DNA from: Haliotis rufescens
Lineage: Eukaryota
DNA length: 64,000 nt
Direction: 5' to 3'
Assembly (NCBI RefSeq): GCF_023055435.1
Contig: NW_025963824.1
Coordinates: 21,204,001 to 21,268,000 of the forward strand
Made by a program: the position numbers and the translations under genes. Shown here in pieces: positions 5,985 through 51,424 of this stretch (position 1 is the first letter of the stretch; each line of letters opens with the position of its first letter). The notes below the pieces were generated by a model. The model searched no databases. It was not told the origin of the DNA and saw only the letters and a program-made list of their open reading frames with translations.

Positions 5985-7902
5985 AAATACATCAGGCAGA
6001 GCACATCACATACACCAGACACATGGCACCACGTACACCAGACACATGGCACCACATACACCAGACACATGGCACCACATACACCAGACACATGGCACCA
6101 CGTACACCAGACACATGGCACCATGTACACCAGACACAGTACACCACATACACCAGACACGTTGCACCACGTACACCAGACACATGGCACCACATATACC
6201 AGACACAGTACATCACGTACACCAGACACGTGGCACCACGTACACCAGACACAGTACACCACATACACCAGACACATGGCACCACGTACACCAGACACAT
6301 GGCACCACGTACACCAGACACATGGCACCACATACACCAGACACATGGCACCACATACACCAGACACATGGCACCACGTACACCAGACACATGGCACCAT
6401 GTACACCAGACACAGTACACCACATACACCAGACACGTTGCACCACGTACACCAGACACATGGCACCACATATACCAGACACAGTACATCACGTACACCA
6501 GACACGTGGCACCACGTACACCAGACACAGTACACCACATACACCAGACACATGGCACCACGTACACCAGACACATGGCACCACGTACACCAGACACAGT
6601 ACACCACATAAACCAGACACATGGCACCACATACACCAGACACAGTACACCACGTACACCAACACATGGCACCACGTACACCACGTACACCAGACACCAT
6701 GTACACCAGACACATGGCACCACGTACACCAGACACGTGGCACCACGTACACCAGACATAGTACACCACGTACACCAGACACAGTACACCACGTACACTT
6801 GACACGTGGCATCACGTACACCAGACACTTTGCACCACATACACCAGACACAGTACACTAAGTACACCAGACACAGTTACACCACGCACGACCGCCTCCG
6901 TGGTCTAATGGTAGAGCGTCTGCCCGGAGAGCGGAAGGTCCAGGGTTCGATCCCCAGCCGCGTAGTACCAAAAGACACTTAAAGATGGTACTTGTTGTTA
7001 CCCTGTCTGGTGCTCGGCACTAAGGGGCTCAAACAAGGACTGGTCGGCTCGGAGTCAGTATACTGTGTCTGAGTGGGGTATTCATGTTAAACTGCGGCAT
7101 GGTATCTCAGTGTGCTAGCATCAGTCTGAACTAGTACAAGCAGCCACACACACACACATACGCGTGCATGCACATCGCTATATAAGTGCAATAATCTTGG
7201 ACGCGATGTTAAACCCCATTTCACCTCACCTACACCACGTACACCAGACACAATACACCATGTACACCAGACACAGTACACCATGTACACCAGAAACAGT
7301 ACACCACGTACACCAGACAAAGTACACCACGTACACCACGTACACCAGACACAGTACACTACGTACACCAGACACAGTACACCACGTACACCAGACACGT
7401 GACACCACGTACACCAGACACATGGCACCACACACACCAGACACAGTACACCACGTACACCAGACACGTGGCACTATGTACACCAGATACAGTACACAGT
7501 ACACCATGTACACCAGACATGTGGCACCACGTACACCAGACGCAGTACACCACGTACACCAGACACGTGACACCACGTACACCAGACACAGTACACCACA
7601 TACACCAGACAATATACACCATGTACACCAGACACATGGCACCATGTACACCAGACACAGTACACCACGTACACCAGACACAGTACACCACGTACACCAG
7701 ACACGTGGCACAATGAACACCAGACACAGTACACCACATACACCAGACACAGTACACCAGACACGTAGCACCACGTACACCAGACACAGTACACCACGTA
7801 CACCAGACACGTGACACCACGTAGACCAGACACAGTACGCCACGTGCACCAGACATGTGGCACCACGTAGACCAGACACAGTACACCACATACACCAGAC
7901 AG
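5985..7902 (+). repeat. 23-bp satellite, left part (interrupted by a SINE and a LINE)
   Basis: Unit caccacgtacaccagacac(atgg/agta); internal 276-bp (12-mer) duplication (gttgcaccac at 6161 and 6437). Confidence 0.95.
6887..7230 (+). mobile_element. tRNA-derived SINE (central domain resembles the Meta domain), full length
   Basis: A-box-like tggtctaatgg, B box ggttcgatccc, central taccaaaagac...gatggtacttgttg...gctcggcactaagggg, (cacct)n tail; apparent TSD tacaccacg. Two more copies occur in the window. Confidence 0.88.
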
Positions 7903-8535
7903 TATCCCCGTGGGGACCGGGGGAAGATAAACAAGAATGGGTCCTCAGCCCCCCAATGCTGGTCGTAAAAGGAGACCGAATTGGGCAGCCTATTTGCCGT
8001 GGGCTGCGACCCTGTGTCGGCAGAGGAAGGGATTCTGGTGGTTGAGGGCGACGGAGCCGGAGCCGGCAATAGTGCTCCTTAGTCCAACACACCACTTCGA
8101 CCCTAACTTTGCCTAGACGGGCGGTAGAATGGGCCCGATTCTATCAATCGGCTGGTCATGTCATGCCCTGTGCATAAGATATTTCACGCACACTTTTGAT
8201 GTTAAAAAAAATAAATTTTTAACCTAAATGTATATCATATCTAACAATCTATAAAACTTGCTTAGAGCCCTATGCCCAGAAGGCGGTGATTCATGGGCCA
8301 ATCTGGTGATGCTGACCTCCGAATTCTGTACATCTCAAATTGATTGTCATGGGCCGAACCAGCCTGACCTTTAATTTGGTAGAATGCTATAGCTCTTCGT
8401 GTCAAATTTGCTGGAGTATATCACCGCTTTATCCCCAGTCTTTGCAGCTTGGAAATCCGCTGCAGCATAAGACTGTCCTTGTAGACACTCCATGGTGGGT
8501 GGGGAAAAGGGGTGCCGAATCATTTTCCTTTCGAC

Positions 8536-9600
8536 ATGGCTTCAACACCCTTCAACATTGAATCTGACAATTCACCTGACGGAAATACCACCAACCAATC
8601 TGACTATTGGCCACGTTTTTTGATTATCGAAGCTTGTGACAAAGAACCAATAAAACTAAATCCGTTTGCAATCTCCAAAGGTATCGCTAGTGCCTGTGGA
8701 AAGGTTACAAATGTCACCAAGCTTCGATCCGGTTCTCTCCTTGTGGAATGTGCACAGAGACAGCAATCCATCAATCTCCTTGGTTTGAAAGAGTTTGTAA
8801 ATATCAAGGTTGCTGTCTCTGAACACAGGACACTGAACTCATGCAAGGGAATTGTCCGTGACAGGGCTCGCTGCCTGTCCGGCATGACTGAGGTTGAAAT
8901 AGTCAAAGAACTTGTCCAACAGTCTGTCACAGCTGTTAAACGATTTACGGTCAAAAAGGATTGTGTGGTTGTAGAGACCAACACCTATTTCTTCACATAC
9001 CCGTTCGAAGATTCCACAATCGATCAAAGCCGGTTAGTGTAACAGCGGAGTGGAGGTGTATATCCCCAATTCACTCCGGTGCTACGCCTGCCAATATTTG
9101 GACATGGATCCAAGTCCTGCCGTGCCTCTGCTGTCTGTTACCGCTGTGGTGACAAACACGAGGCCACTGACTGCAGGAAGGATGTGAAGTGTTCAAACTG
9201 TGGTGGGAACCGTATGGCATCTTCCAAATCCTGCCCTGTCTGGCAACATGAATTACAGATAATGAAAACCAAGACTGAACAAAACCTCTCCTACTATGAA
9301 GCTAAGAAGAGGATTGTAGGTACTACTGCAACCACTTCTTCTATCTCTTACTCTGCTGCTGTCTCTCGTCCTCCTGTCACCACTGCCTCTATCGACTGCC
9401 AGCCTGACCTGACATGGGTCAAGTCTGTGCAGCCACTTCCTACTGCTTCACTCGTTAAACCAGCTGTGACACCTTCGTCTGTGACTCCTCCAAAACAAAA
9501 AACTGTAAAAAATGTTGAGTCTCAGACTCCTAAAGCAACATCAGAATCAGGACCAGAACCAGAACCAGTTAAACTTTTAAACAGCGAAAAAAAATATTGA
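8536..9600 (+). pseudogene. LINE ORF1 (gag-like nucleic-acid-binding protein with zinc knuckles), frameshifted
   Basis: WPRFLII...LNPFAI...KLRSGSLLVEC...HRTLNSCKG; FGHGSKSC...CYRCGDKH...CSNCGGN...CP. Confidence 0.88.
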
Positions 9601-9679
9601 AAAAGAAGCAGTACCACAAAGTCTTCCTCACGTTCGCGTGACATTTCTCCTGTGGAAGCACCACCATGAATCCACAAAA

Positions 9680-12600
9680 CATAATACAATGGAATTGAAG
9701 AGGTCTTAAGGAGAATTTTAACGAAATACAACTTTTAATCCAAGATTTTAAACCGTCAGCTTTTTGTCTCCAAGAAACATATCTGAAACACACAGATCTA
9801 TTTGATATCCCTCAGTACAGTTCTTACCACTCGTTTTCCCCTCCTGGTGATAAAGCTGCAGAGGAGCTTCTATCCTGGTGAAGTAGGGCATTATCCATAG
9901 CCCTGTTCCACTCAACACTATTCTACAAGCTGTTGCAGTCCTGGTACTTTGAACATAGTGTTTACATTATGTTTATTGTATCTTCCACCTTCCTCAAATA
10001 TCCGTCAATCAGATCTTCAGACTTTGTACGATCAGCTCCCGAAGCCCTGTGTCATCATGAGTGATTTAAACGGTCATAATCCCCTATGGGGGAGTACTGA
10101 CACAAATAATAAGGGAAAAGTCCTTGAAGATTTTATCTCAAACAATGATTTATGCATCTTCAATTATGGTAATACCACATATCTTCATCCCGCCACTGGC
10201 ACATACTCTGCCCTTGACCTTTCACTGACAAGATTCAAATATTTTAAATGAATTTGAATGGTCGGTCCATGATTACCTTTGTGGAAGCGACCATTTTCCA
10301 ACGATACTTACAACTATTAATCCGTCTGACGAACCACCGTCAACAAGGTGGAAAACTAATACCCGACAGTTTCAGGAATGTTCCTGATCCTATACAACTT
10401 TTTTCAGATATATTGAATGCTATTGGAGACGAAAGCATTCCTAAGTCCTCTGCAAACCCTCATATAAGTAAACCATGGTTCGATAATAATTGTAAACAAA
10501 CTAGGAAAAATAGGAAGAGAGCTGAAAAATATTTCCGACGACATCTAACTGTCCACAATTTGAATAACGTTAAAATCACGGGCGCTAAAGCGAGACGTAC
10601 CTTTAAACAGAATAAACGTCAATCCTGGAGGAACTATGTTTTAAAAATTAATTCCCGCACACCTATGTCCAAGGTGTGGAACATGATTCAAAAGATTAAG
10701 GGCAAAGGATCCAAATCTGGAGTTCACCATCTCAAAGATGGTAATACACTCTTAACTACTAAATCCGAAATGGCCAACAAACTTGGTGACACTTTGGCAA
10801 ACCATTCCTCATCATCAAACTTTAATCCATAATTTCAGATTTCAAAAACAGCAGGAAAAGAAAAAGGTCAATTTTAACTCTGATAATGGTGAGGACTATA
10901 ACGAAATATTTTCATTCCATGAATCATATACTGCCCTAGGGCAATCTTATGACACTGCAGCAGGAGCCGACAACATCCACTATCAGCTCCTGAAACACTT
11001 GCCCGATTCATGTTTGGAAACTTTACTGAATATATTTGATCAAATATAGACAACCGGAAATTTCCCTCCTTCGTGGCACAATGCTATTATTATTCCTATT
11101 CCAAAGCCTGGACCGGATCACACAGATCCATCCAACTACCGTCCAATATCATTAACTAGCTGTGTTTGTAAAACCATGGAGCGCATGGTCAACAATCGAT
11201 TAGTCTGGTACCTGGAGACCAATAACCTGAGTGACATCCAGTGTGGTTTCCGAAAGAACAGAATACCATTGGTGCGTTTAGAATCGTTTATTAAAAATTC
11301 CATTGTCAAAAAACAACATACTGTATCAATCGTTTTAGATCAAGAGAAAGCATATGATACAACGTGGAAACATGGTATTTTAAAAGATTTGCATGAATTT
11401 GGATTGAGGGGCAGATTACCTCAGTTCATATCTCAATTTTTAAACAACAGACAATTTCAAGTACGAGTGGGCTCTACCTTGTCTGATCATTTTGATCAAG
11501 ATCAGGGCGTCCCTCAAGGCAGCATACTGTCAGTCACCCTTTTCAGCATCAAAATTAATAGTCTCACTAAAGTATTAAACAATAGCGTTGATGGTTCACT
11601 TTTTGTGGACGATTTCAACATTTCTTGTCGTGGTAAGAATATGAATAAAATAGAAAGACAGCCACAGCTCTGTCTTAACAAAATTCAAAAATGGGCAAAC
11701 GAAAACGCCTTCAAATTTTCTAAATCCAAAACAAACTGTATTCACTTTTGTCGTAAATACAAACCTCACAAGGATCCAGATTTATTTTTAGATGGTACTC
11801 CTATCAAGGTAGTAGAGGAGGCAAAAATTCCTGGGCCTCATATTTGACCGTCATCTCACATTCTTACCACACATTAAATATCTCAAGGCAAAGTGCCTGA
11901 AGGCTCTCGACTTGTTAAAAGTCGTTTCAAATTCCGAGTGGGGAGGGGATCAGACCACCCTCCTTCACTTGTACAGATCGTTAATACGCTCCAAACTGGA
12001 CTATGATCCATTGTCTATGGTGGAGCCTGCAAAAGCAATTTAGAAAAATTGGACACTGTACACCATCAAGGCCTAAGCCTCTGTCTTGGAGCTTTTAGGA
12101 CCTCTCCCGTGGATGTGTTGTATGTGGAGGCCGATGAACCTTCACTCGAACTGCGCCGCATTAAACTTTCACTGCAATATGTTACTAAATTGCACTCAAA
12201 TAAATCTAATCCAGCATACAATTGTGTCTTCCCCCCTTAATATGAAAACCTGTTTCAAAATCTATCAAACCTGGTTCCATCACTGCAGCTAAATTGGATT
12301 TAAATATCATATCACCTCACCGTCTTCTGTCTTCTCCTCCCTGGCAGATGGTGAAGCCAGAAGTAGACCTCACTCTAACCAATCTAAAAAAGTCGGATAC
12401 CAATCCTTTGGTATATCAACAATCATATAACCAATTACGCTCCAAATATAATTCTCACTGGTCCATTTTTTACAGACGGGTCTAAGGATGGTGGCAAAGT
12501 TGCAAGTGCCACCATCATTGGATCCAAAACTGTCTCCTCAAGAATACCAGATACTAGTTCAATTTTTACTGCTGAGGCCAAAGCTATCTTTACAGCTTTG

Positions 12601-13267
12601 ACCTATATCCAACATCAAAACCATCTAAAAATTTCATCATTTTCTCCGATTCATTATCATGCCTTCAGGCACTTAAAAGTGTCTCCTCAAATCATCCTAT
12701 AATTCTTGACATTTTAGAACTCTATAATGATCTTTCTACTGGCCAATGTGACGTCGTATTTTGTTGATTACCAAGTCATGTAGGCATAACGGGTAACTCA
12801 AAAGCCGATACTGCAGCCAAAGCAGCTGTTGACAAACCGTTATCTCCACTTCTTATCCCTACAGTGATTTCAAACCAACCATCAAATCTTATACTCGGGA
12901 TCTCATGCAAAAGAGGTGGGACACCCAAGTAGGAAGCAATAAACTACACGAATTCAAACCAACAATCGGTCATACCTACTTGGGTTGTCAGTCAAGACAT
13001 GACGAGGTCGTTTTACGACGGTGTCGTATTGGCCACAGTCGGTTTACCCACGAATATCTGCTTAAGACAGATGAGGACGAACCTCCTAAGTGTATCCCTT
13101 GTGATGAAAGATTCACCGTCAAGCATATATTGCTTGACTGTGTGGACTTTACAATCGCAAGGGATTCACATTATCAAAGTGTAAATCTAAAAGATCTCTT
13201 TTCCAGTGTCAGCGGGCATCTCATCATAAATTACTTGAAAGAAATTGGTCTGTATAATAAATTTTAA
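9680..13267 (+). pseudogene. LINE ORF2 (AP endonuclease, reverse transcriptase, RNase H, C-terminal CCHC), multiply disrupted
   Basis: CLQET, DLNGHNPLWGS, SDHFP (endonuclease); NYRPISLTS, EKAYDTTW, GVPQGSILS, SLFVDD (RT); FTDGSK, PSHVGI (RNase H); CIPC...TVKHILLDC. Confidence 0.92.
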
Positions 13268-13810
13268 ATATATATGTGAATAATTAAATGCTTGTTTTTT
13301 AATTTGGTGTAATGCTATTAGCAACTGACATTATTAAAGGCTCTGTCCAGGAGGTTAACGTAGCGTAAAAATATTGTCCCCCTGTGTGACACGTAATCCT
13401 ATAGTAATGGATGTAACTATCATCAACCAGTGTTTTAAGCCAACTCATTGATGAGTATTTTTTAATATTGGCTAGTATTGTGCACAACCACCAGTGGCTA
13501 AAGTGTTGACGTAAATCCTGCTGCGGTATCATGCAGGAAGCAGAGGTACTGAAGACCCCATGATCCCCAGCGAGGTGGCCTAGCTTTGGTTGCTGGTGGC
13601 CTATAGCCCGTGTTTTAAACTGTATTAATGATATTGTTATGCTCAAATATGTTTCATCAATTATTTTTAAATATAATATGTTCCAATATGTTTCATAAAT
13701 TGTTTTTAAATATGACATTGCATAAATAACTAAATTGTGTATATCGGTCTCATCGCTATATGGCTGAAATAATGCCGATGCGACGTTCAATTTTAACTCA
13801 CTCACTCACT

Positions 13811-14704
13811 CACCAGACAGGACACCAGACACAGTACACCACGTACACCAGACACGTGGCACCACGTACACCAGACACATGGCACCACGTACACCAGACA
13901 CAGTACACCAGACACAGTACACAACATACACCAGACATGTGGCACCACGTACACCAGACACAGTACACCACGTACACCAAATACAGTACACCACGTACAC
14001 AAGACAAAGTACACCACGTACACCAGACACGTGGCACCACGTACATTAGACACAGTACACCACGTACACCAGACACGTGGCACCACGTACACCAGACACA
14101 GTACACCACATACACCAGACAAAGTACACCATTTAGACCAGACACGTGCACCAGACATGTGGCACCACGTACACCAGACACAGTACACCACATACATCAG
14201 ACAGTACACCAGACACAGTACACCACATACACCAGACAAAGTACACCCAATACACCAGACACTTGGCACCACGTACACCAGACAGATGGCACCACGTACA
14301 CCAGACACAGTACACCACGTACACCAGACTCGTGGCACCATGTACACCAGACACAGTACACCACATACACCAGACACATCGCACCACGTACACCCGACAC
14401 ATTGCACCACGTAAACCAGACACAGTACACCACGTACACCAGATACGTGGCACAACGTACACCAGACACATGGCACCACATACACCAGACACATGGCACC
14501 ATGTACACCAGACACAGTACACCACATACACCAGACACATGGCACCACATACACCAGACACATGGCACCACGTACACCAGACACAGTACACCACATACTC
14601 CAGACACATGGCACCACGTACACTAGACACAGTACACCACGTACACCAAACACAGTACACCACGTACACCAGACACATTGCACAACGTACACCTGACACA
14701 GTAC
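13811..14704 (+). repeat. 23-bp satellite, right part (continuation after the LINE)
   Basis: Same unit as 5985-7902. Confidence 0.95.
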
Positions 14705-14759
14705 CCCAGTTTAATGTATTAAAAGGCAGATGACATAATTGTTTTTTTTCAAATGTTAA

Positions 14760-22744: not shown

Positions 22745-25420
22745 TATGCCCTGTGTCTAGTGTATGTGGAGTGTCTGGTATATGTGCTGTGTCTGATGTA
22801 TGTGGTGTGCTATGTCTGATGTATGTGCTGTACTGTGTCTGATGAATGTGGTGTGCTGTGTCTAGTGTATGTGGTGTACTGTGTCTGATGAATGTGGTGT
22901 GCTGTGTCTAGTGTATGTGGTGTACTGTGTCTGATGTATGTGGTGTGCTGTGTCTGGTGAATGTGGTGTGCTATGTCTGATGTATGTGGTGTGCTGTGTC
23001 TGATGAATGTGGTGTGCTGTGTCTGATGTATGTGGTGTGCTGTGTCAGATGTATGTGGTGTGCTATGTCTGGTGTATGTGGTGTGCTGTGCCTGGTGTAT
23101 GTGGTGTGCTGTGTCTGATGTATGCGGTGTGCTGTGTCTGATGTATGTGGTGTGCTGTGTCTGATGTATGTGGTGTGCTATGTCTGATGTATGTGGTGTG
23201 CTATGTCTGATGTATGTGGTGTGCTGTGTCTGATGTATGCGGTGTGCTGTGTCTGGTGAACATGGTGTGCTGTGTCTGATGTATGTGGTATGCTGTGTCT
23301 AGTGTATGAGGTGTGCTGTGTCTGATGTATGAAGTGTGCTGTGTCTGATGTATGTGGTGTTCTGTGTCTGGTGAATGTGGTGTGCTGTGTCTGATGTATG
23401 TGGTATGCTGTGTCTAGTGTATGAGGTGTGCTGTGTCTGATGTATGTGGTGTGCTATGTCTGATGTATGTGTTGTGCTGTGTCTGATGTAGGTGGTGTGC
23501 TGTGTCAGATGTATGTGGTGTGCTGTGTCTGATGTATGTGGTGTTCTGTGTCTGGTATATATGGTGTGCTGTGTCTGATGTATGTGGTGTGCTGTGTCTG
23601 ATGTATGCGGTGTGCTGTGTTTGGTGTATGTGCTGTACTGTGTCTGATGAATGTGGTGTGCTGTGTTTGGTGTATGTGCTGTACTGTGTCTGATGAATGT
23701 GGTGTGCTGTGTCTGATGTATGTGGTGTACTGTGTCTGATGAATGTGGTGTGCTGTGTCTAGTGTATGTGGTGTACTGTGTCTGATGTATGTGGTATGCT
23801 GTGTCTAGTGTATGAGGTGTGCTGTGTCTGATGTATGTAGTGTGCTGTGCCTGGTGTATGTGGTGTGCAATGGCTGATGTATGCGGTGTGCTGTGTCTGA
23901 TGTATGCGATGTGCTGTGTCTGATGTATGTGGTGTGCTGTGTCTGATGTATGCGGTGTGCTGTGTCTGGTGAACGTGGTGTGCTGTGTCTGATGTATGTG
24001 GTATGCTGTGTCTAGTGTATGAGGTGTGCTGTGTCTGATGTATGAAGTGTGCTGTGTCTGATGTATGTGGTGTTCTGTGTCTAGTGTATGAGGTGTGCTG
24101 TGTCTGATGTATGTGGTGTGCTATGTCTGATGTATGTGGTGTGCTGTGTATGATGTATGTGGTGTGCTGTGTCAGATGTATGTTGTGTGCTGTGTCTGAT
24201 GTATGTGGTGTGTTGTGTCTGATGTATGCGGTGTGCTGTGTCTGGTGAACGTGGTGTGCTGTGTCTGATGTATGTGGTGTGCTGTGTCTGATGTATGCGG
24301 TGTGCTGTGTCTGGTGAACGTGGTGTGCAGTGTCTGATGTATGTGGTATGCTGTGTCTAGTGTATGAGGTGCGCTGTGTCTGATGTATGAAGTGTGCTGT
24401 GTCTGATGTATGTGGTGTTCTGTGTCTAGTGTATGAGGTGTGCTGTGTCTGATGTATGTGGTGTGCAATGGCTGATGTATGCGGTGTGCTGTGTCTGATG
24501 TAGGCGATGTGCTGTGTCTGATGTATGTGGTGTGCTATGTCTGATGTATGTGGTGTGCTGTGTCTGATGTATGCGGTGTGCTGTGTCTGGTGAACGTGGT
24601 GTGCTGTGTCTGATGTATGTGGTATGCTGTGTCTAGTGTATGAGGTGTGCTGTGTCTGATGTATGAAGTGTGCTGTGTCTGATGTATGTGGTGTTCTGTG
24701 TCTAGTGTATGAGGTGTGCTGTGTCTGATGTATGTGGTGTGCTATGTCTGATGTATGTGGTGTGCTGTGTCTGATGTATGTGGTGTGCTGTGTCTGATGT
24801 ATGTGGTGTGCTGTGTCTAGTGTATGAGGTGTGCTGTGTCTGATGTATGGGGGTGTGCTATGTCTGATGTATGTGGTGTGCTGTGTCTGATGTATGTGGT
24901 GTTCTGTGTCAGATGTATGTTGTGTGCTGTGTCTGATGTATGTGGTGTTCTGTGTCTGATATATATGGTGTGCTGTGTCTGATGTATGTGGTGTGCTGTG
25001 TCTGATGTATGCGGTGTGCTGTGTTTGGTGTATGTGCTGTACTGTGTCTGATGAATGTGGTGTGCTGTGTTTGGTGTATGTGCTGTACTGTGTCTGATGA
25101 ATGTGGTGTGCTGTGTCTGATGTATGCGGTGTGCTGTGTTTGGTGTATGTGCTGTACTGTGTCTGATGTATGCGGTGTGCTGTGTTCGGTTTATGTGCTG
25201 TACTGTGTCTGATGAATGTGGTGTGCTGTGTCTGATGTATGCGGTGTGCTGTGTCTGATGTATGCGGTGTGCTTAGTCAGATGTATGCGGTGGGCTGTGT
25301 CTGGTGTATGCGGTGTGCTGTGTCTGATATATGCGGTGTGCTGTGTACACCAGACACAACGCACCTGATACACCAGACACAGGGCACACCACATACATCA
25401 GACATAACACCACATATCAC
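22745..25420 (-). repeat. 23-bp satellite related to 5985-14704 but inverted; orientation flips back at ~25345
   Basis: Unit tgtgtctgatgtatgtggtgtgc is the reverse complement of gcacaccacatacatcagacaca. Confidence 0.93.
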
Positions 25421-36547: not shown

Positions 36548-37779
36548 CTTGTAACACCAAAAGCCTTGCCACTGAGGGATTACAACACTGATATTAGTGA
36601 TAGTAAGAACTGTGTCACCTATGTCAACTGTGGACATGGTGTTTTCTGAATGAAATTGTTTCGGGTTGGGGTTTCTTTGAACAGACAAATGGCACAGTTT
36701 CAGCACCGGTTGATTCCATGTTTTTATATTGCCTCTATGTACATGATGTATGTTAAGCAAGATAAAGCTGTTTTGTCTACTTACATTTAGAAGGATGCCC
36801 TCATTTTGTACATGTTGTAGTTCATAGTAGTTTACATCATGAACAACATCGTTGTTACACTTTTCAAGGGAGTAGGTGGCCAGAGTCAAGACTTCTGGGA
36901 TGTGGACAATGGTGGACTTGGAAATGACTTGTTTACTTTTAACATGCCCCCAAAGACATGCCAAAGTCTTGCCTGGTAGATTATGTATATGTCTGGCCTG
37001 GAGGACACAAGGTGCAGTTTATCTACATAATCTGCTACAGTTGATACATCTTGGACACAGCACTGGAGTTTCCAAAACATCAGCAGCCATCATGAAAACT
37101 GAGTTTAAAATAATAGGTTTTGGAGGGTAACAATATGTTACTTGGGTCATTGTGTGTCATCAGACCTTGACAAGCCTTGAATTTGTACAAAATGACATAT
37201 ACTTGTAAGTCAAAGTATTAAAACACACACAAATATTTAGCGAAGATGTTTGACATGTATAATTTAGATTTATGATGGTGATAGATTTGTGTGCTAAAGA
37301 CCCTGAAAATTTTTATGACAGACTTAATATACTTTTGTTGTTAGTGAAATAAAAATCTTGTTGGAAAATTTATGATAATCATACTGCTTTTAAGGTCTTA
37401 TTATTCATATATAGTATGCTGATTTAATAAAATATTGACAGACTAAGGCTAATAACCCAACAAAAAAGCCTTGAAAATGACAGCAAGCAACCTTGAAAAG
37501 CCTTGAATAGGCCTTGAATTTTAGGGTTCCATATCTGCATGCATTTGGAGAGTCTCAATAAAACAATCGAGGATTATTTCTAATATATTGCGTGAAAAGT
37601 GAATTCTGTGTTTCACAGTGTTTTTCTCGTGAACACACTATCTGTGCTGTGAGGTTTCCCCCACTTCACATCTTCTTACAGTACTGTACGTTGCATTCTA
37701 TGAATAGCAGCAAATCTCAATGTGAGCATGGTAAGGAAACATCATTCACAGGGTGCAGCCAGGGCTGGATGCAGGCAGT

Positions 37780-37950
37780 AGTGACCCTGACAGTTGGTCC
37801 CTAGCAGCCTCATGCTGGTCGTCAGAGGTGACTTAATGTCAGTCATAATATCAGTCACTAGGTTGTCTAGTCAAAATTTGATTATTTACAGGCCACTTTC
37901 ATACAGATGGTATATTGCTGATTCGTCATTAAACAATAAACACGCACATA
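37780..37950 (+). mobile_element. Internally deleted copy of the non-tRNA SINE-like family
   Basis: catgctggtcgtcagaggtgact...gattatttacagg...tatattgctga...ttaaacaataaac. Confidence 0.6.
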
Positions 37951-38782: not shown

Positions 38783-41700
38783 TTGGCTGTAGTCTGCAGT
38801 GTGTATGTAGTTGTACAGACATGGTGTACTGGCTGTAGCCTACAGTGTATGTGTAGTTGTACAGCCATGGTGTACTGGCTGTAGTCTGCAGTGTGTATGT
38901 AGTTGTACAGACATGGTGTACTGGCTGTAGCCTACAGTGTATGTGTAGTTGTACAGACATGGTGTACTGGCTGTAGTCTGCAGTGTGTATGTAGTTGTAC
39001 AGACATGGTGTACTGGCTGTAGCCTACAGTGTATGTGTAGTTGTACAGCCATGGTGTACTGGCTGTAGTCTGCAGTGTGTATGTGGTTGTACAGCCATGG
39101 TGTACTGGCTGTAGCCTGCAGTGTGTATGTAGTTGTACAGACATGGTGTACTGGCTGTAGTCTGCAGTGTGTATGTAGTTGTACAGCCATGGTGTACTGG
39201 CTGTAGCCTGCAGTGTATGTGTACTTGTACAGACATGGTGTACTGGCTGTAGCCTGCAGTGTGTATGTGGTTGTACAGCAATGGTGTACTGGCTGTAGCC
39301 TGCAGTGTGTATGTAGTTGTACAGCCATGGTGTACTGGCTGTAGCCTGCAGTGTGTATGTAGTTGTACAGCCATGGTGTACTGGCTGTAGTCTGCAGTGT
39401 GTATGTGGTTGTACAGCCATGGTGTACTGGCTGTAGTCTGCAGTGTGTATGTAGTTGTACAGCCATGGTGTACTGGCTGTAGCCTGCAGTGTGTATGTAG
39501 TTGTACAGCCATGGTGTACTGGCTGTAGCCTGCAGTGTATAAGTAGTTGTACAGACAAGGTGTACTGGCTGTAGCCTGCAGTGTGTATGTAGTTGTACAG
39601 ACAAGGTGTACTGGCTGTAGCCTGCAGTGTGTATGTAGTTGTACAGCCATGGTGTACTGGCTGTAGCCTGCAGTGTGTAAGTTGTTGTACAGACATGGTG
39701 TACTGGCTGTAGCCTGCAGTGTGTATGTGGTTGTACAGCCATGGTGTACTGGCTGTAGCCTGCAGTGTGTATGTAGTTGTACAGACAAGGTGTACTGGCT
39801 GTAGCCTGCAGTGTGTATGTAGTTGTACAGCCATGGTGTACTGGCTGTAGCCTGCAGTGTGTAAGTAGTTGTACAGACATGGTGTACTGGCTGTAGCCTG
39901 CAGTGTGTATGTAGTTGTACAGCCATGGTGTACTGGCTGTAGTCTGCAATGTGTAAGTAGTTGTACAGCCATGGTGTACTGGCTGTAGCCTGCAGTGTGT
40001 AAGTAGTTGTACAGACATGGTGTACTGGCTGTAGCCTGCAGTGTGTATGTAGTTGTACAGACATGGTGTACTGGCTGTAGCCTGCAGTGTGTATGTGGTT
40101 GTACAGCCATGGTGTACTGGCTGTAGCCTGCAGTGTGTATGTAGTTGTACAGCCATGGTGTACTGGCTGTAGCCTGCAGTGTGTATGTAGTTGTACAGCC
40201 ATGGTGTACTGGCTGTAGCCTGCAGTGTGTATGTGGTTGTACAGCCATGGTGTACTGGCTGTAGTCTGCAGTGTTTATGTAGTTGTACAGCCATGGTGTA
40301 CTGGCTGTAGCCTGCAGTGTGTATGTAGTTGTACAGCCATGGTGTACTGGCTGTAGCCTGCAGTGTATAAGTAGTTGTACAGACATGGTGTACTGGCTGT
40401 AGCCTGCAGTGTGTATGTAGTTGTACAGACAAGGTGTACTGGCTGTAGCCTGCAGTGTGTATGTAGTTGTACAGCCATGGTGTACTGGCTGTAGCCTGCA
40501 GTGTGTAAGTAGTTGTACAGACATGGTGTACTGGCTGTAGCCTGCAGTGTGTATGTGGTTGTACAGCCATGGTGTACTGGCTGTAGCCTGCAGTGTGTAT
40601 GTAGTTGTACAGACAAGGTGTACTGGCTGTAGCCTGCAGTGTGTATGTAGTTGTACAGCAATGGTGTACTGGCTGTAGCCTGCAGTGTATAAGTAGTTGT
40701 ACAGACATGGTGTACTGGCTGTAGCCTGCAGTGTGTATGTAGTTGTACAGACATGGTGTACTGGCTGTAGCCTGCAGTGTATAAGTAGTTGTACAGACAT
40801 GGTGTACTGGCTGTAGCCTGCAGTGTGTATGTAGTTGTACAGCCATGGTGTACTGGCTGTAGTCTGCAATGTGTAAGTAGTTGTACAGCCATGGTGTACT
40901 GGCTGTAGCCTGCAGTGTATGTGTAGTTGTACAGCCATGGTGTACTGGCTGTAGTCTGCAGTGTGTATGTAGTTGTACAGCCATGGTGTACTGGCTGTAG
41001 TCTGCAGTGTGTATGTAGTTGTACAGACATGGTGTACTGGCTGTAGTCTGCAGTGTGTAAGTAGTTGTACAGACATGGTGTACTGGCTGTGGCCTGCAGT
41101 GTGTAAGTAGTTGTACAGACATGGTGTACTGGCTGTAGCCTGCAGTGTGTAAGTAGTTGTACAGCCATGGTGTACTGGCTGTAGCCTGCAGTGTGTATGT
41201 AGTTGTACAGCCATGGTGTACTGGCTGTAGCCTGCAGTGTATAAGTAGTTGTACAGCCATGGTGCACTGGCTGTAGCCTGCAGTGTGTATGTAGTTGTAC
41301 AGCCATGGTGTACTGGCTGTAGTCTGCAGTGTGTAAGTAGTTGTACAGACATGGTGTACTGGCTGTAGTCTGCAGTGTGTATGTGGTTGTACAGCCATGG
41401 TGTACTGGCTGTAGCCTGCAGTGTGTATGTAGTTGTACAGACATGGTGTACTGGCTGTAGTCTGCAGTGTGTATGTAGTTGTACAGCCATGGTGTACTGG
41501 CTGTAGCCTGCAGTGTATGTGTAGTTGTACAGACATGGTGTACTGGCTGTAGCCTGCAGTGTGTATGTGGTTGTACAGCCATGGTGTACTGGCTGTAGCC
41601 TGCAGTGTTATGTTGTTGTACAGCTATGGTGTACTGGCTGTAGCCTGCAGTGTGTATGTAGTTGTACAGACATAGTGTACTGGCTGTAGCCTGCAGTGTA

Positions 41701-44700
41701 TGTGTACTTGTACAGACATGGTGTACTGGCTGTAGCCTGCAGTGTGTGGTTGTACAGCCATGGTGTACTGGCTGTAGCCTGCAGTGTGTATGTAGTTGTA
41801 CAGACATGGTGTACTGGCTGTAGCCTGCAGTGTATAAGTAGTTGTACAGACATGGTGTACTGGCTGTAGCCTGCAGTGTGTATGTAGTTGTACAGCCATG
41901 GTGTACTGGCTGTAGTCTGCAATGTGTAAGTAGTTGTACAGCCATGGTGTACTGGCTGTAGCCTGCAGTGTATGTGTAGTTGTACAGCCATGGTGTACTG
42001 GCTGTAGTCTGCAGTGTGTATGTAGTTGTACAGCCATGGTGTACTGGCTGTAGTCTGCAGTGTGTATGTAGTTGTACAGACATGGTGTACTGGCTGTAGT
42101 CTGCAGTGTGTAAGTAGTTGTACAGACATGGTGTACTGGCTGTAGCCTGCAGTGTGTATGTAGTTGTACAGCCATGGTGTACTGGCTGTAGTCTGCAATG
42201 TGTAAGTAGTTGTACAGCCATGGTGTACTGGCTGTAGCCTGCAGTGTGTAAGTAGTTGTACAGACATGGTGTACTGGCTGTAGCCTGCAGTGTGTATGTA
42301 GTTGTACAGACATGGTGTACTGGCTGTAGTCTGCAATGTGTAAGTAGTTGTACAGCCATGGTGTACTGGCTGTAGCCTGCAGTGTATGTGTAGTTGTACA
42401 GCCATGGTGTACTGGCTGTAGTCTGCAGTGTGTATGTAGTTGTACAGCCATGGTGTACTGGCTGTAGTCTGCAGTGTGTATGTAGTTGTACAGACATGGT
42501 GTACTGGCTGTAGTCTGCAGTGTGTAAGTAGTTGTACAGACATGGTGTACTGGCTGTAGCCTGCAGTGTGTATGTAGTTGTACAGCCATGGTGTACTGGC
42601 TGTAGTCTGCAATGTGTAAGTAGTTGTACAGCCATGGTGTACTGGCTGTAGCCTGCAGTGTGTAAGTAGTTGTACAGACATGGTGTACTGGCTGTAGCCT
42701 GCAGTGTGTATGTAGTTGTACAGACATGGTGTACTGGCTGTAGCCTGCAGTGTGTATGTGGTTGTACAGCCATGGTGTACTGGCTGTAGCCTGCAGTGTG
42801 TATGTAGTTGTACAGCCATGGTGTACTGGCTGTAGCCTGCAGTGTGTATGTAGTTGTACAGCCATGGTGTACTGGCTGTAGTCTGCAGTGTGTATGTAGT
42901 TGTACAGACATGGTGTACTGGCTGTAGTCTGCAGTGTGTAAGTAGTTGTACAGACATGGTGTACTGGCTGTAGCCTGCAGTGTGTATGTAGTTGTACAGC
43001 CATGGTGTACTGGCTGTAGTCTGCAATGTGTAAGTAGTTGTACAGCCATGGTGTACTGGCTGTAGCCTGCAGTGTGTAAGTAGTTGTACAGACATGGTGT
43101 ACTGGCTGTAGCCTGCAGTGTGTATGTAGTTGTACAGACATGGTGTACTGGCTGTAGTCTGCAATGTGTAAGTAGTTGTACAGCCATGGTGTACTGGCTG
43201 TAGCCTGCAGTGTATGTGTAGTTGTACAGCCATGGTGTACTGGCTGTAGTCTGCAGTGTGTATGTAGTTGTACAGCCATGGTGTACTGGCTGTAGTCTGC
43301 AGTGTGTATGTAGTTGTACAGACATGGTGTACTGGCTGTAGTCTGCAGTGTGTAAGTAGTTGTACAGACATGGTGTACTGGCTGTAGCCTGCAGTGTGTA
43401 TGTAGTTGTACAGCCATGGTGTACTGGCTGTAGTCTGCAATGTGTAAGTAGTTGTACAGCCATGGTGTACTGGCTGTAGCCTGCAGTGTGTAAGTAGTTG
43501 TACAGACATGGTGTACTGGCTGTAGCCTGCAGTGTGTATGTAGTTGTACAGACATGGTGTACTGGCTGTAGCCTGCAGTGTGTATGTGGTTGTACAGCCA
43601 TGGTGTACTGGCTGTAGCCTGCAGTGTGTATGTAGTTGTACAGCCATGGTGTACTGGCTGTAGCCTGCAGTGTGTATGTAGTTGTACAGCCATGGTGTAC
43701 TGGCTGTAGTCTGCAGTGTGTATGTGGTTGTACAGCCATGGTGTACTGGCTGTAGTCTGCAGTGTTTATGTAGTTGTACAGCCATGGTGTACTGGCTGTA
43801 GCCTGCAGTGTGTATGTAGTTGTACAGCCATGGTGTACTGGCTGTAGCCTGCAGTGTATAAGTAGTTGTACAGACATGGTGTACTGGCTGTAGCCTGCAG
43901 TGTGTATGTAGTTGTACAGACAAGGTGTACTGGCTGTAGCCTGCAGTGTGTATGTAGTTGTACAGCCATGGTGTACTGGCTGTAGCCTGCAGTGTGTAAG
44001 TAGTTGTACAGACATGGTGTACTGGCTGTAGCCTGCAGTGTGTATGTGGTTGTACAGCCATGGTGTACTGGCTGTAGCCTGCAGTGTGTATGTAGTTGTA
44101 CAGACAAGGTGTACTGGCTGTAGCCTGCAGTGTGTATGTAGTTGTACAGCAATGGTGTACTGGCTGTAGCCTGCAGTGTATAAGTAGTTGTACAGACATG
44201 GTGTACTGGCTGTAGCCTGCAGTGTGTATGTAGTTGTACAGACATGGTGTACTGGCTGTAGCCTGCAGTGTATAAGTAGTTGTACAGACATGGTGTACTG
44301 GCTGTAGCCTGCAGTGTGTATGTAGTTGTACAGCCATGGTGTACTGGCTGTAGTCTGCAATGTGTAAGTAGTTGTACAGCCATGGTGTACTGGCTGTAGC
44401 CTGCAGTGTATGTGTAGTTGTACAGCCATGGTGTACTGGCTGTAGCCTGCAGTGTGTAAGTGGTTGTACAGACATGGTGTACTGGCTGTAGCCTGCGGTG
44501 TGTATGTGGTTGTACAGCCATGGTGTACTGGCTGTAGCCTGCAGTGTGTAAGTAGTTGTACAGCCATGGTGTACTGGCTGTAGTCTGCAGTGTGTATGTA
44601 GTTGTACAGCCATGGTGTACTGGCTGTAGCCTGCAGTGTGTAAGTAGTTGTACAGACATGGTGTACTGGCTGTAGTCTGCAGTGTGTATGTAGTTGTACA

Positions 44701-45030
44701 GCCATGGTGTACTGGCTGTAGTCTGCAGTGTGTATGTAGTTGTACAGCCATGGTGTACTGGCTGTAGCCTGCAGTGTGTATGTAGTTGTACAGCCATGGT
44801 GTACTGGCTGTAGTCTGCAGTGTGTATGTAGTTGTACAGACATGGTGTACTGGTTGTAGCCTGCAGTGTGTATGTAGTTGTACAGACATGGTGTACTGGT
44901 TGTAGCCTGCAGTGTGTAAGTAGTTGTACAGCCATGGTGTACTGGCTGTAGCCTGCAGTGTGTATGTGGTTGTACAGCCATGGTGTACTGGCTGTAGCCT
45001 GCAGTGTATGTGTGGTTGTACAGATGGCTG
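38783..45030. repeat. 46-bp satellite, ~135 copies, with higher-order structure
   Basis: gtacagccatggtgtactggctgtagcctgcagtgtgtatgtagtt; source of the 392-1568 aa pseudo-ORFs. Confidence 0.97.
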
Positions 45031-46124: not shown

Positions 46125-48240
46125 TGATGGACTACACAATGATCTACCAGAACATCTAGAGAGCGACACAATATTCAAAAGGACACCTAGGGGCTACACA
46201 ATGATCTTCCAGACATCTAGAGAGCAACACAGTGATCGATAGGACACCTAGGGGCTACACAGTGATCTACAGGACACCTAGGGGCTACACAGTGATCTAC
46301 CAGAACATCTAGAGAGTGATGCAATATTCTATAGGACACCTAGGGGCTACACAGTTATCTATAGGACACCTAGCTGCTACACAGTGATCTATAGGACTCC
46401 TAGGGGCTACACAGTGATCTACCAGAACATCTAGAGAGCGACACAATATTCAAAAGAACACCTAGGGGCTACACAATGATCTTCCAGACATCTAGAGAGC
46501 AACACAGTGATCGATAGGACACCTAGGGCTACACAGTGATCTACAGGACACCTAGGGGCTACACAGTGATCTATAGGACTCCTAGGGGCTACACAGTGAT
46601 CTACCAGAACATCTAGAGAGTGACACAATATTCTATAGGACACCTAGGGGCTACACAGTTATCTATAGGACACCTAGCTGCTACACAGTGATCTATGGGA
46701 CACCTAGGGCTACACAGTGATCTACCGGAACATCTAGAGAGCGACACAATATTCAAAAGAACACCTAGGGGCTACACAATGATCTTCCAGACGTCTAGAG
46801 AGCAACACAGTGATCGATAGGACACCTAGGGGCTACACAGTGATCTACAGGACACCTAGGGCTACACAGTGATCTATAGGACACCTAGGGGCTACACAGT
46901 GATCTACCAGAACATCTAGAGAGTGACGCAATATTCTATAGGACACCTAGGGGCTACACAGTTATCTATAGGACACCTAGCTGCTACACAGTGATCTATG
47001 GGACACCTAGGGCTACACAGTGATCTACCAGAACATCTAGAGAGCGACACAATATTCAAAAGAACACCTAGGGGCTACACAATGATCTTCCAGACATCTA
47101 GAGAGCAACACAGTGATCGATAGGACACCTAGGGGCTACACAGTGATCTACAGGACACCTAGGGCTACACAGTGATCTATAGGACACCTAGGGGTTACAC
47201 AGTGATCTACAGGACACCTAGAGTTACACAGTGATCTACAGGACACCTAGGGTTACATAGTGGTCTATAGGACACCTAGGGGTTACACAGTGATCTACAG
47301 GACACCTAGGGTTACATAGTGATCTTCAGGACACCTAGGGTTACATAGTGGTCTATAGGACACCTAGGGTTACACAGTGATCTACAGGACACCTAGGGTT
47401 ACATAGTGATCTACAGGACACCTAGGGTTACATAGTGGTCTATAGGATACCTAGGGTTACACAGTGGTCTATAGGACACCTGGGGGCTACACAGTGATCT
47501 ACAGGACACCTAGTGTTACATAGTGATCTACAGGACACCTAGGGTTACATAGTGGTCTATAGGACACCTAGGGGTTACACAGTGATCTACAGGACACCTA
47601 GGGTTACATAGTGATCTACAGGACACCTAGGGTTACATAGTGATCTACAGGACACCTAGGGTTACATAGTGATCTACAGGACACCTAGGGTTACATAGTG
47701 ATCTACAGGACACCTAGGGTAACACAGTGGTCTATAGGACACCTGGGGGTTACACAGTGATCTACAGGACACCTAGGGTTACATAGTGATCTACAGGACA
47801 CCTAGGGTTACATAGTGATATACAGGACACCTAGGGTTACATAGTGATCTACAGGACACCTAGGGGTTACACAGTGATCTACAGGACACCTAGGGTTACA
47901 TAGTGATCTACAGGACACCTAGGGTTACATAGTGGTCTATAGGACACCTAGGGGTAACACAGTGATCTGTAGGACACCTAGGGGTAACACAGTGATCTAC
48001 AGGACACCTAGGGTTACATAGTGGTCTATAGGACACCTAGGTTACACAGTGGTCTATAGGACACCTAGGTTACACAGTGGTCTACAGGACACCTAGGGTT
48101 ACATAGTGATCTACAAGACACCTAGGGTTACATAGTGGTCTATAGGACACCTAGGGTTACATAGTGGTCTATAGGACACCTGGGGGTTACACAGTGATCT
48201 ACAGGACACCTAGGGTTATTTAGTGGTCTATAGGACACAT
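46125..48240. repeat. 30-31-bp satellite; ~300-bp higher-order repeat on the left, simple monomers on the right
   Basis: ggacacctaggg(g)(c/t)tacacagtgatctata; marker gagcgacacaatattcaaaa at 46161, 46436, 46739, 47042. Confidence 0.95.
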
Positions 48241-51175
48241 TAATGGGACAGAAGGGTTTACCCTGCATCAGTGAGGATCTCATGATTGTTATAATTGTGT
48301 GTGTGTATATATATATTCTGTGCAGCATCAGTTTTCTCAGGTACCTCCTTGGTGTGGCTCCATGTGGGATTGTGTGTGGTGCACAGAACAGAGGGTGTGG
48401 TGCCCAGTACTGCATGCTCACTGCGAGATACACATGTCAGGGGAAAACCCAAGCTACGCCACCTCGCAGGTTTGGCAAACTTAATTTATCGGCAGCAGCT
48501 TTTTTAAGTTGTCATGGCAACACCCCAAACGAGCTTGTTTGTCTACAGTGAGAGAGGGGGTTCAGTTCATCCTGGCTAATGTCAAATATGCAACCTTGAC
48601 CTTTTGATGGGGTCATTGGAGTTCCCTGTTGAAGGTGTGTGTCGTGTAGCCATGGAAACTGGTACATATGATGTTATGGGCGTAATCAGATGCTTCTGCT
48701 CCAGCATGTGTGATGATCAGCAGGTTCACATGCTATATATAACACTCATTAACAGGCTCATTCCACCAAGTGTTATTTCCGTGCATTGTCAGCTCAAAGG
48801 CTGATATGTTGGTGTACAGCTCACCAAATATCCTGATACACTGCTTGTAATAGTATAAGTTTCTCATCACAGAGATCTTGGAATAGCTGACTGACAGGAT
48901 GGGAGGGGAACATTGCAGAGTAAGAGATTGCTTGAGCAGTGCATCTGTCTAATAAAAGTGTTTCTTTTGTATGGCTTGTTGATTTCTGTTGTTGATACCT
49001 CTTTGGCAGTGGAAATAATGTTTGGAAAGGTGCTTAATGTGTGTACAGATGTTGACTTGTGTCACCTGGATTGTTACACAACCGACTCCATGTGTCCTTG
49101 TGGCAACAACACTTCACACTGACTGTGCAACATCCAGGCAGCGTTTTCATAGAAGTCCATTTGTCTGTGAATAAGTGTGCATAGGCAAAAAATATCTGTT
49201 CCTGTGAACAGAGTGATGTTCAAATTGAACTAATAAGCATTTCCAAGCTGAAATTCCTCATGTTATTGGGATGCAAACTATTTTCTGCAGAAGTCAGACA
49301 GAGGTGAAATTTGTAGGTACATTCTGCACTGCAGTTTGGATGCTGGTGTGATGCTGACTTGACAGTTTGGTCCTACATCCTCGACTAGGTCTGCAAGTCA
49401 CTAGGCTCTTTCCCAGCATAACTCACATTCCTCTGTCCCAGGCTGGTCGCTGGCTGCACTCAGTACACGCCTACATTCATCACATGGTCTCCTCACAATG
49501 GTTGGTGTAGTAGGCCAAGTTCCCACTTGTCCTGAGACCTATCGTGAGTTCGTAGGTTATGTGTGTCTGGTGCAGCTATCAACACTCAGTGGTTGAGGTG
49601 TTCTTGTTATATGGGCTCCACTCGGGCTCATGTGGGTCTGTCCAACTGCAGGTAGTGGAGGACAGTACAGACGATTTCAAACGAATCATAATCAATGATT
49701 TATCACACTCATCGATCATGGGGATCTAAGTTATAATGAAGATAAGATGCTATCACTACTGTAAATGTGATTGTGCAGACAGGAGAGAGTTTTATAACCT
49801 CTGAGCAATCCTGAATAAAATGGTCCAAAGTGATATAGAAGTTGCAATATTTAACATGTTTAAGATGCTAGCTTAATGATTTTACATTTGAGATCAGGGA
49901 TCTTATGTCTTTCTTTCTGGTGATATAATAAGGGTACTTCGTCCAGCATAAGCATCTTAAGAAAGCTTGGGGAAGGGTAGATTAGGTAGATAGTCCAACC
50001 AGGATCCAGACAACCCATTGACTTAATCAACATGATAAAGGTGACATTCAATCAGTCAGTCAGGGAAATCAGAGCCTCCCTGATTAAAATAGATGCTTGT
50101 GACAAACAGCAACAATCCATGCCATCGTGGTACAATGACATGCAATCAGCCAAGTAACAGACTGACCACCTTGTTTTAATTGTCTCTAAGACAAGTGTGA
50201 GGTACTGGGTAGCGGCATATGAAAACAGTAGCTAGCATCTGGGCGACACACCTGGCAGGCTCCTACAGAACCCGGGCTTTGATGTTGGGGCTGAGTCAGG
50301 ACATTTACAGCAGAGCATCATGTGGCCATGCATCAGTGAGCATAGTTGACAGGGAATTTGCTCAGCAGGACCATTCTGTGTTTTTCTTTTATTACACTGT
50401 TAGAAGTTTGACAGTTTTATTGTAGGTAGAAGTAATAACCTAGCACTGCTGCAGTTTTAATACACTTTGGGAATCAATTTCTAAAAATACCCAAATAGTA
50501 CAAATAAGTTGTTAGCAGTGGTGACTCAAAACTTTTGCGTTAATAGTAAACATAAATAGATTGTTTGGTGGTGCTCAAAATAAATAGTTTGTTGGATACA
50601 ACTAGGGGGAAAAAAATAGATTGTTCGTAAAAATATCCTAAAAAAACCCAAATCCCCCCACCCTACCCCTGCAAATGAAAAGGATGCTCCCTTACAAGTG
50701 AGGAAACATCGGGATGTATTCACATCAGTAGCAGCACTCAGTCACAAACAATATACATGGGAACATGAGATTCCGTCATTTGTGTAGAACATTGTAGCCA
50801 TGACAGCATACATAGAATTATGTTTGTGATTTGATACACCAGGTAACTGGCCTCCTGACATTTTTTACAGGAATGAACAACAAAACTTTATCAGTGCTTG
50901 AATCATTGTGCATGTTGAATATTATCTAACTTGTAATCATTCTGAGTGCATAGTTACAATATTTTTGGGTATTCAGCATATTTCTACTTCCTTGGGTCCA
51001 ATCTATTGGGTATATTTAAACAAGTGAGTTGACATTCCAAAGTATGTCTACTTAAAACAAATACATGTTTACAGAGCAGAGTTTAGCCCCTGATGGTGTT
51101 TGGTACAATGATAGTTAGTTTGGAAAATTTGCATATGCTTCCTTAACCATGTAGCAGGAAACCCACATCAATAGC

Positions 51176-51424
51176 CTCATGAAGATCTGGGTTAGAATTG
51201 ATCTTCAGCATGTTCAGCAACCCATGCTTGTCACATGATGCAACTACAGGGATCAGGGGGTCAGGCTCGCTGACTTGCTTCATGCTTGTTATCATATCCG
51301 AGTTGCGTAGATTGATGCTCATTATGTCACTCACTGGATTGTCTGGTCCAGAGTCAATTATTTACAGACTTCCGTCTAATAGCCAGAATATTGTTGAGTG
51401 TGGTGTTGAACAACAAACAAACAC
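51176..51424 (+). mobile_element. Non-tRNA SINE-like element sharing 5' and 3' ends with the Nimb-like LINE
   Basis: 5' gaagatctgggttagaattgatcttc...aacccatgcttgtc; 3' atagccagaatattgttgagtgtggtgttgaa plus (aaac)n, comparable to LINE 3' atggctgaaataatgccgatgcgacgttcaa. Confidence 0.75.

Follow-up and report, generated by a model that had tools for sequence, protein, structure and literature searches.

The 5' end of a LINE from Haliotis rufescens is formed by an 80-base head (7905-7985) whose predicted fold opens, at the element's very first base, with an H-type pseudoknot and continues with a closing helix and a sequence-conserved hairpin. The head lies in a window of 64,000 nucleotides, by which we mean the whole stretch of DNA analysed; the element parts given below are on its forward strand. 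The original prediction that a pseudoknotted RNA motif is kept here by compensatory changes is borne out by three helices that covary across 19 families. As judged by comparison of sequences, the head is common to I-group, RTE-like and R2/R4-like elements and to SINEs. We consider it likely that this module defines the 5' end of its element at the RNA level, and we tentatively favor self-cleavage as the mechanism.

Fold of the head

Helices were tested by comparing duplex energies of strands paired with their own partners and with swapped partners (19 families, 20,000 permutations). The family set came from 21 representatives chosen by eye (2 from H. rufescens, 19 foreign and none viral), of which L110 and L138, having no linker anchor, were dropped. 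Own partners beat swapped ones for P2 (7911-7917 with 7941-7947, z = −6.4), P1 (7905-7910 with 7919-7924, z = −4.6) and P3 (7952-7956 with 7981-7985, z = −3.3, p = 0.0015), the z values being somewhat inflated, equally in all tests, by related families in the set (L091/L102, L118/L142 and L096/L162). Two nonsense pairings used as controls gave p values of 0.19 and 0.50. P1 pairs the first six bases of the element with the G-run behind the 5' strand of P2, the first base of the element being that of the helix, and P3 is formed by the C-run ahead of the core and the G-run that follows the core. The helix order is P1a-P2a-P1b-P2b-P3a-P4-P3b, with a gap of 0 to 3 bases between P2a and P1b.

Parts of this fold had been recognized in the original prediction, and the letters that it quoted are present in their places both in the LINE and in the element at 51176. 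Its first helix (7912-7917 with 7941-7946) is P2, and its hairpin at 7961-7977 holds as P4. For its second helix (7919-7923 with 7949-7954) and for a closing helix between the 5' and 3' ends, own partners were no better than swapped ones (p = 0.82 and 0.77). Most family copies have other bases than the window copy at 7919, 7940 and 7973, and the changes at the first two positions made the helices of the original prediction look longer. It carries a G-G mismatch in P1 (7910/7919) and a broken pair in P4 (7965/7973).

The linker between P1 and P2 (7925-7940) is variable in length and contains a conserved AGAAT (7934-7938), which ends the linker in 16 of the 19 families. Insertions into the linker of L092, L096/L097 and L127 are, by eye, hairpins themselves. 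The distance from the 5' end to the core ranges from about 43 to 61 bases across families, and the C after P4 is invariant. A further helix of four base pairs, P3* (7947-7950 with 7957-7960), is tentative. It is complete in 12 of the 19 families, compared with a mean of 1.4 for shuffles, and none of 5,000 shuffles was as good. Changes in P3* are one-sided only in the 19-family set, and the scallop rows in the available part of PMC4758252 (Fig. S2, by eye) are readable with one two-sided change. Together with P3, P3* possibly forms a second H-type pseudoknot; the head would then tentatively be a tandem of two H-type pseudoknots whose last loop holds P4.

Single sequences reveal the fold to different degrees. 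An ungapped pseudoknot search recovered P1 plus P2 in 17 of the 21 families and in none of the other four; nine of the 17 beat at least 99% of 200 shuffles, the others having bulged or decayed helices. Single-strand folding of an intact LINE head recovered P1, P3 and P4 (z = −2.87 against shuffles), and z was below −2 for two of seven folded heads. The heads of the window LINE (z = −0.39) and of the 51176 SINE (z = +0.49) fold no better than shuffles. One pair of P3 is non-canonical in 8 of 29 LINE copies, and the helix is weak or lost in L118, L142, L162 and L156. RNAalifold on a MAFFT alignment, in which the 5' helices are out of register, found P4 alone.

The LINE and the SINEs that share its head

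The head belongs to a full-length but decayed I-group LINE of 5.9 kb (7905-13811), recognized from its open reading frames, a reverse transcriptase (RT) match and comparison with family copies. It consists of a 5' UTR, ORF1 (ATG at 8536), ORF2 (ATG at 9666, to about 13267) and an (ACTC)4 tail. Stops and frameshifts disrupt this copy. In the intact family copy L256, ORF1 encodes 418 amino acids with a CCHC motif, and ORF2 encodes 1230 amino acids with APE, RT and RNase H domains. These domains, the tandem-repeat tail and a target-site duplication are those of I-group LINEs, and the domain layout together with the head makes Nimb the likely clade (compare the part of PMC4758252 available). The left duplication (7894-7904) matches the right one (13812-13822) in 10 of 11 bases, and is less certain because it lies inside the 23-bp minisatellite that is the host site. 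Across 36 LINE copies, divergence is low over the first 240 bases without singling out the module. A family-specific hairpin adjoins the module on its 3' side (7985-7990 with 8002-8007), and a two-sided change in this hairpin in L106 implies a longer structured region in related LINEs.

A decayed copy of an abundant SINE family of about 250 bp lies at 51174-51423; it is about 80% identical to its best relatives and of the LP-SINE type discussed below. It has the same head as the LINE and by itself, as noted above, folds no better than shuffles. A second SINE copy with this head, strongly decayed, occupies 37772-37943. Throughout the 1.33-Gb genome of H. rufescens, exact matches to a 19-base core pattern number 47,973, copies with a duplicated hairpin being counted twice, and the reversed control has none. 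The 3' ends of the LINE (13730-13811) and the SINE (51380-51423) share a similar motif and differ in tail repeat, so the SINE is likely mobilised via a related LINE family.

Comparison of three small-RNA runs with one SINE copy placed 8, 109 and 12 reads on it. Most of these were antisense, about 30 bases long and in the body of the element, and none lay at the 5' end of that copy. In one SINE body (L060:1645-1675), antisense RNAs of about 30 bases form a piRNA-like pile-up, in which 63 of 77 begin at one base (run X22). Elsewhere in the window, long minisatellite arrays with units of 23, 46 and 29 bp occupy 6007-7901, 13822-14708, 22751-25346, 38784-45023 and 46180-48238, and the long open reading frames at 38.8-45.1 kb are merely the 46-bp array. 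A near-perfect inverted repeat at 870-971, possibly a MITE, has a weak miRNA-family score far under threshold.

A conserved hairpin and possible protein recruitment

P4 (7961-7977) has a 7-base loop (7966-7972) and is conserved in sequence, an invariance that is circular since the families were selected on P4. Likewise, none of its five pairs covaries, in a set chosen by P4 sequence. Scallop rows found independently of this selection (PMC4758252, in the part available) keep the loop and the 3' side and have one P4 pair broken. Duplications of the 22-base unit containing P4 occur in 8 of 33 and 13 of 20 SINE copies from H. rufescens. In L071, L076, L079 and other SINE copies of this genome, the unit is repeated two to several times, with a pair often broken in the first repeat.

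A T-loop has seven bases, with U first, a purine fourth and A fifth. The P4 loop fits this rule, and its fourth base, which was left free in the search pattern, is a purine in 19 of 20 cases. We weighed an unlikely alternative, in which the fold serves to attract a protein of the host or the element: either a tRNA-elbow-like loop guides an endonuclease that cuts 5' of P1, or the head is a signal for the RT or the ribosome, for instance for cap-independent translation past upstream ATGs. P4 acting as a repeatable unit would suit a binding site for a protein, and the 11 upstream ATGs in the 623-base 5' UTR of the LINE would suit the translational version. The elbow of a tRNA stacks 12 bp from the 5' end; P4 has no such stack, which counts against the endonuclease version. 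Ribozymes in viral UTRs aid translation, according to the part of PMC13725137 available. A translational element had been among the roles first proposed for the head, and as the sole main role it is unlikely, since the head persists in SINEs that code for nothing; the module is also retained in a satellite and in a viral 3' UTR, described below, and translation cannot be the role common to all carriers.

Exact 5' ends and the published promoter hypothesis

The original prediction placed the motif at the exact 5' end of the LINE. The motif does begin there, but the first base of the element is T7905 rather than 7903. LINE pattern matches have a T immediately ahead of the C-run in 29 of 30, 35 of 36 (an overlapping set) and 71 of 73 cases. 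In SINE copies, GA precedes CCCG in 32 of 43; the L096 family, which includes L162, starts with G in 9 of 10 copies; and scallop copies start with C (PMC4758252, Fig. S2, by eye, in the part available). These sets were selected for having a head and tell where heads begin, not how frequent full-length copies are. The 5' strand of P1 has six bases without a leader in LINE, SINE, L096 and scallop copies alike, and its first base varies among them.

Among 36 LINE copies fetched, 23 reach the 3' end and 15 have a duplication of at least 9 bases. Exactly one T separates the duplication from the C-run in 11 of these 15, and four are ambiguous, as the duplication itself ends in T. No extra G was found at the 5' junction in any of the 15, whereas capped L1 and SVA RNAs leave an untemplated G (PMC4859970, in the part available).

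The sequence of the head has been published. Matetovici et al. (2016) described, in the portion of PMC4758252 available, an LP ("LINE promoter") head of about 70 bases on Nimb-17_LMi, I-3_DR, RTE-9_CPB and mollusc LP/MESC SINEs, including an oyster SINE whose tRNA head was replaced by LP. Like LP, the head described here is a homology of about 70 bases that LINEs and SINEs share only at their extreme 5' ends. The Haliotis LP-SINEs are 255 bp long, similar to the SINE of H. rufescens, and the "Nimb-17 homology" rows of Fig. S2 have, by eye, the same linker and hairpin core. We infer identity with Hdi_LP itself. That portion of the paper gives LP no structure (the word "pseudoknot" has no matches) and no R2/R4-type, satellite or viral carriers. 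Literature searches, which covered few subscription journals and no Repbase reports, returned no paper giving a structure or an activity of the head. LP has thus been published as a sequence and apparently not as a structure; the novelty first suggested for the motif would extend to its fold, which has no Rfam match, and not to the sequence module.

The same paper proposed a promoter role for LP as a hypothesis and named the promoter/ribozyme of L1Tc as a parallel. By analogy with the 77-base head of L1Tc, which is promoter and ribozyme in one, LP might be an internal DNA promoter to which the RNA fold adds protection as a second layer, and such a promoter could coexist with an RNA-level function; as the explanation of the head we rate it as unlikely. 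The exact 5' position suits it, as does the replacement of a tRNA head, which is itself a promoter, in the oyster SINE (PMC4758252, as above). The invariant and duplicable 22-base unit resembles a factor-binding site, and G is the first base of most SINE copies. Opposed to this are compensatory changes in three helices, a first base that varies by family, and the variable distance between the 5' end and the core. The lack of an extra G in 15 of 15 copies and an intact copy in an RNA virus also argue against it.

Spread over unrelated elements and a possible exonuclease roadblock

By eye, a metagenome scan yielded 65 stretches, about 44 with a recognisable head and about 21 with chance core matches, and a genome scan yielded nine, three with a head and six with chance matches. 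The head stands before APE-first open reading frames of RTE type, a clade that we infer, in L100 and L127. In L126 it is on an element of R2 type that lies within a (TAA)n run, and a protein from a relative of this element (P0003) is closest to R2 proteins (E = 3e-37 versus 5e-16 for L1). Two diverged heads stand in tandem before one RTE-like open reading frame (L100:1490-1645), and in L145 identical 74-base head units stand in tandem inside a 600-bp satellite unit.

Short headed elements in (AAT)n runs (L142/L153 and L118/L144) are possibly non-autonomous derivatives. The fragment after the head in L142 resembles the zinc knuckle region at the C-terminus of R2/R4-type proteins, and it has no PDB match. 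In L131, an open reading frame with a PC4 domain (2029-2607) lies 500 bases 3' of a 5'-truncated head. Three copies in bacterial genome bins are likely contamination: L161 and L162 are eukaryote-like LP elements, and L165 is SINE-like, is followed by a long triplet repeat and seems eukaryotic. A search for phage copies of the module gave no match.

Viral scans, relaxed patterns included, gave only two contigs. One of them, L157 (= L290), is a 6.9-kb viral contig with an intact 953-codon RdRP frame (RdRP_4). About 25 bases separate the RdRP stop from the start of the module (1456-1531), in which P1, P2, P3*, P3 and P4 are all paired. A hairpin spanning the stop codon precedes the module. No relative of this RNA virus was found in the viral scan, and its RdRP part has no PDB match. 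The other, L156, is a 212-kb AT-rich viral contig in which the module lies between two genes (1455-1530) with P3 down to two pairs; an HHH/BRCT protein is encoded farther upstream.

The start of a viral 3' UTR is the usual place of exonuclease-resistant RNAs (xrRNAs; PMC12081666, in the part available). A possible explanation, not among the roles first proposed and one we hold with some doubt, is that the head is an xrRNA-like roadblock: Xrn1/Xrn2 would degrade read-through or intron RNA from 5' to 3', and the site where they stall at the pseudoknot would become the element's 5' end. This would explain tandem heads, and the head does have a 5'-terminal H-type pseudoknot, as protected 5' ends of xrRNAs do. 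A roadblock would tolerate duplication of P4 and likewise predicts the absence of a cap-derived G. The constant six-base 5' strand is close to the about five unpaired bases that Xrn1 needs (PMC12081666, same part), a fit that requires P1 to be unwound where the enzyme stalls. That source also reports that class 1 xrRNAs halt the enzyme about 4 bases upstream of the pairing and that class 2 halts are scattered over 3-8 bases; unlike these sites, the LP end is exactly the first paired base. The near-invariant P4 domain is left unexplained. The LP head has no flavivirus-type three-way junction and no unpaired leader, and no Rfam xrRNA family matches it. Furthermore, the viral scans contain a single RNA-virus case, for which they gave no relative.

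Self-cleavage as the favored mechanism

Self-cleavage by an undescribed fold is the mechanism that we predict, tentatively, and place narrowly ahead of a roadblock. The element would be transcribed by read-through from flanking DNA, and the head RNA would fold. The bond 5' of P1 would then be cut, possibly assisted by the conserved AGAAU linker and the back-folded P4 hairpin domain. The freed RNA, its 5' end already knotted, would be reverse transcribed to the last base. A LINE or SINE acquiring the module would no longer depend on a promoter of its own, and this would account for the repeated swapping of the module.

Several observations favor self-cleavage. Covariation in three helices and the hairpin nature of linker insertions indicate a constraint at the RNA level, and all helices are intact in a contig of an RNA virus, a genome without a DNA stage. 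The 5' boundary tracks structure rather than sequence, with single-nucleotide precision at the first paired base, and the clean junctions of the 15 LINE copies are unlike those of capped RNAs. A run of at least four T occurs 41 times in the intact LINE copy, which speaks against Pol III there. The head occupies the same slot as proven ribozymes, among others on the R2-type L126 and the RTE-like L100 and L127. HDV-like self-cleavage has been reported at the 5' junction of Dong (in TAA repeats), R4 and RTE elements, and HDV-like ribozymes also head R2 (PMC3774820 and PMC6765202, each in the part available). The takeover from a tRNA head in the oyster SINE (PMC4758252, as above) fits a 5' processor too.

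The LP head resembles HDV-like ribozymes of R2, R4/Dong, RTE and L1Tc in position, in host clades, in starting at the first base of P1, in the crossing of P1 and P2, and in an optional hairpin between the 3' strand of P1 and a conserved linker. The difference lies in the core. HDV-like ribozymes are nested double pseudoknots with P3, L3 and P1.1 between the P2 and P1 strands; the LP head lacks this core and its helices are in tandem, as the original prediction had it in denying an HDV topology. Their catalytic C precedes the 3' strand of P2, whereas the LP linker contains no C and the invariant C after P4 belongs to another domain. A loose HDV descriptor of our own also matched 25 of 40 shuffles and is thus uninformative. 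By eye, the LP helices appear to fit the helix order of none of twister, pistol, hatchet and hammerhead. The search of Rfam called for at the outset gave no match to any of these, to HDV-like ribozymes or to xrRNAs at E values up to 5-10, in the window plus 17 loci. What the LP head shares with these ribozymes, including twister in non-LTR elements of Schistosoma (PMC8501958, in the part available), is to be a small structured RNA at a retroelement 5' end.

Other observations weigh against self-cleavage. No catalytic residue can be assigned in the predicted ribozyme. In the viral contig, a cut would split the coding region from the 3' end; ribozymes are known in linear dsRNA viruses, mostly in 5' UTRs or in tandem pairs (PMC13725137, in the part available). 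Of two tandem heads (L100 and L145), the upstream one should be lost if the downstream one is an active ribozyme, and the frequent duplication of P4 would be expected to upset a tight catalytic core. No pair of P4 covaries, though in a set selected on its sequence, and the pseudoknot search separated only about half of the recovered families from shuffles. P3 is non-canonical, weak or lost in the copies listed above. The first G of SINEs could stem from a cap, and the rule linking such a G to capping has been shown for L1 and not for an I-group RT. Finally, the 19 families are not all independent.

Should self-cleavage hold, LP would be a self-cleaving ribozyme of a new class, with a T-loop hairpin and two H-type pseudoknots in tandem. 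As a plug-in 5' processor it would have been swapped among retrotransposons of the I group, RTE and R2/R4 types, SINEs, satellites and viruses, and a single genome would contain tens of thousands of copies. We hold this fuller proposal slightly more tentatively than cleavage itself.

Implications for non-LTR retrotransposons

How an exact 5' end is made without a known promoter is a puzzle for most non-LTR clades, and the LP module is both short and widespread. Cleavage, if true, would add a ribozyme class from animal genomes. A stall of Xrn1, if true, would be the first host-genome roadblock that defines the end of a retrotransposon, literature searches having returned none. Either a cut or a stall would overturn the label "LINE promoter" and would explain how SINEs could lose their tRNA head.
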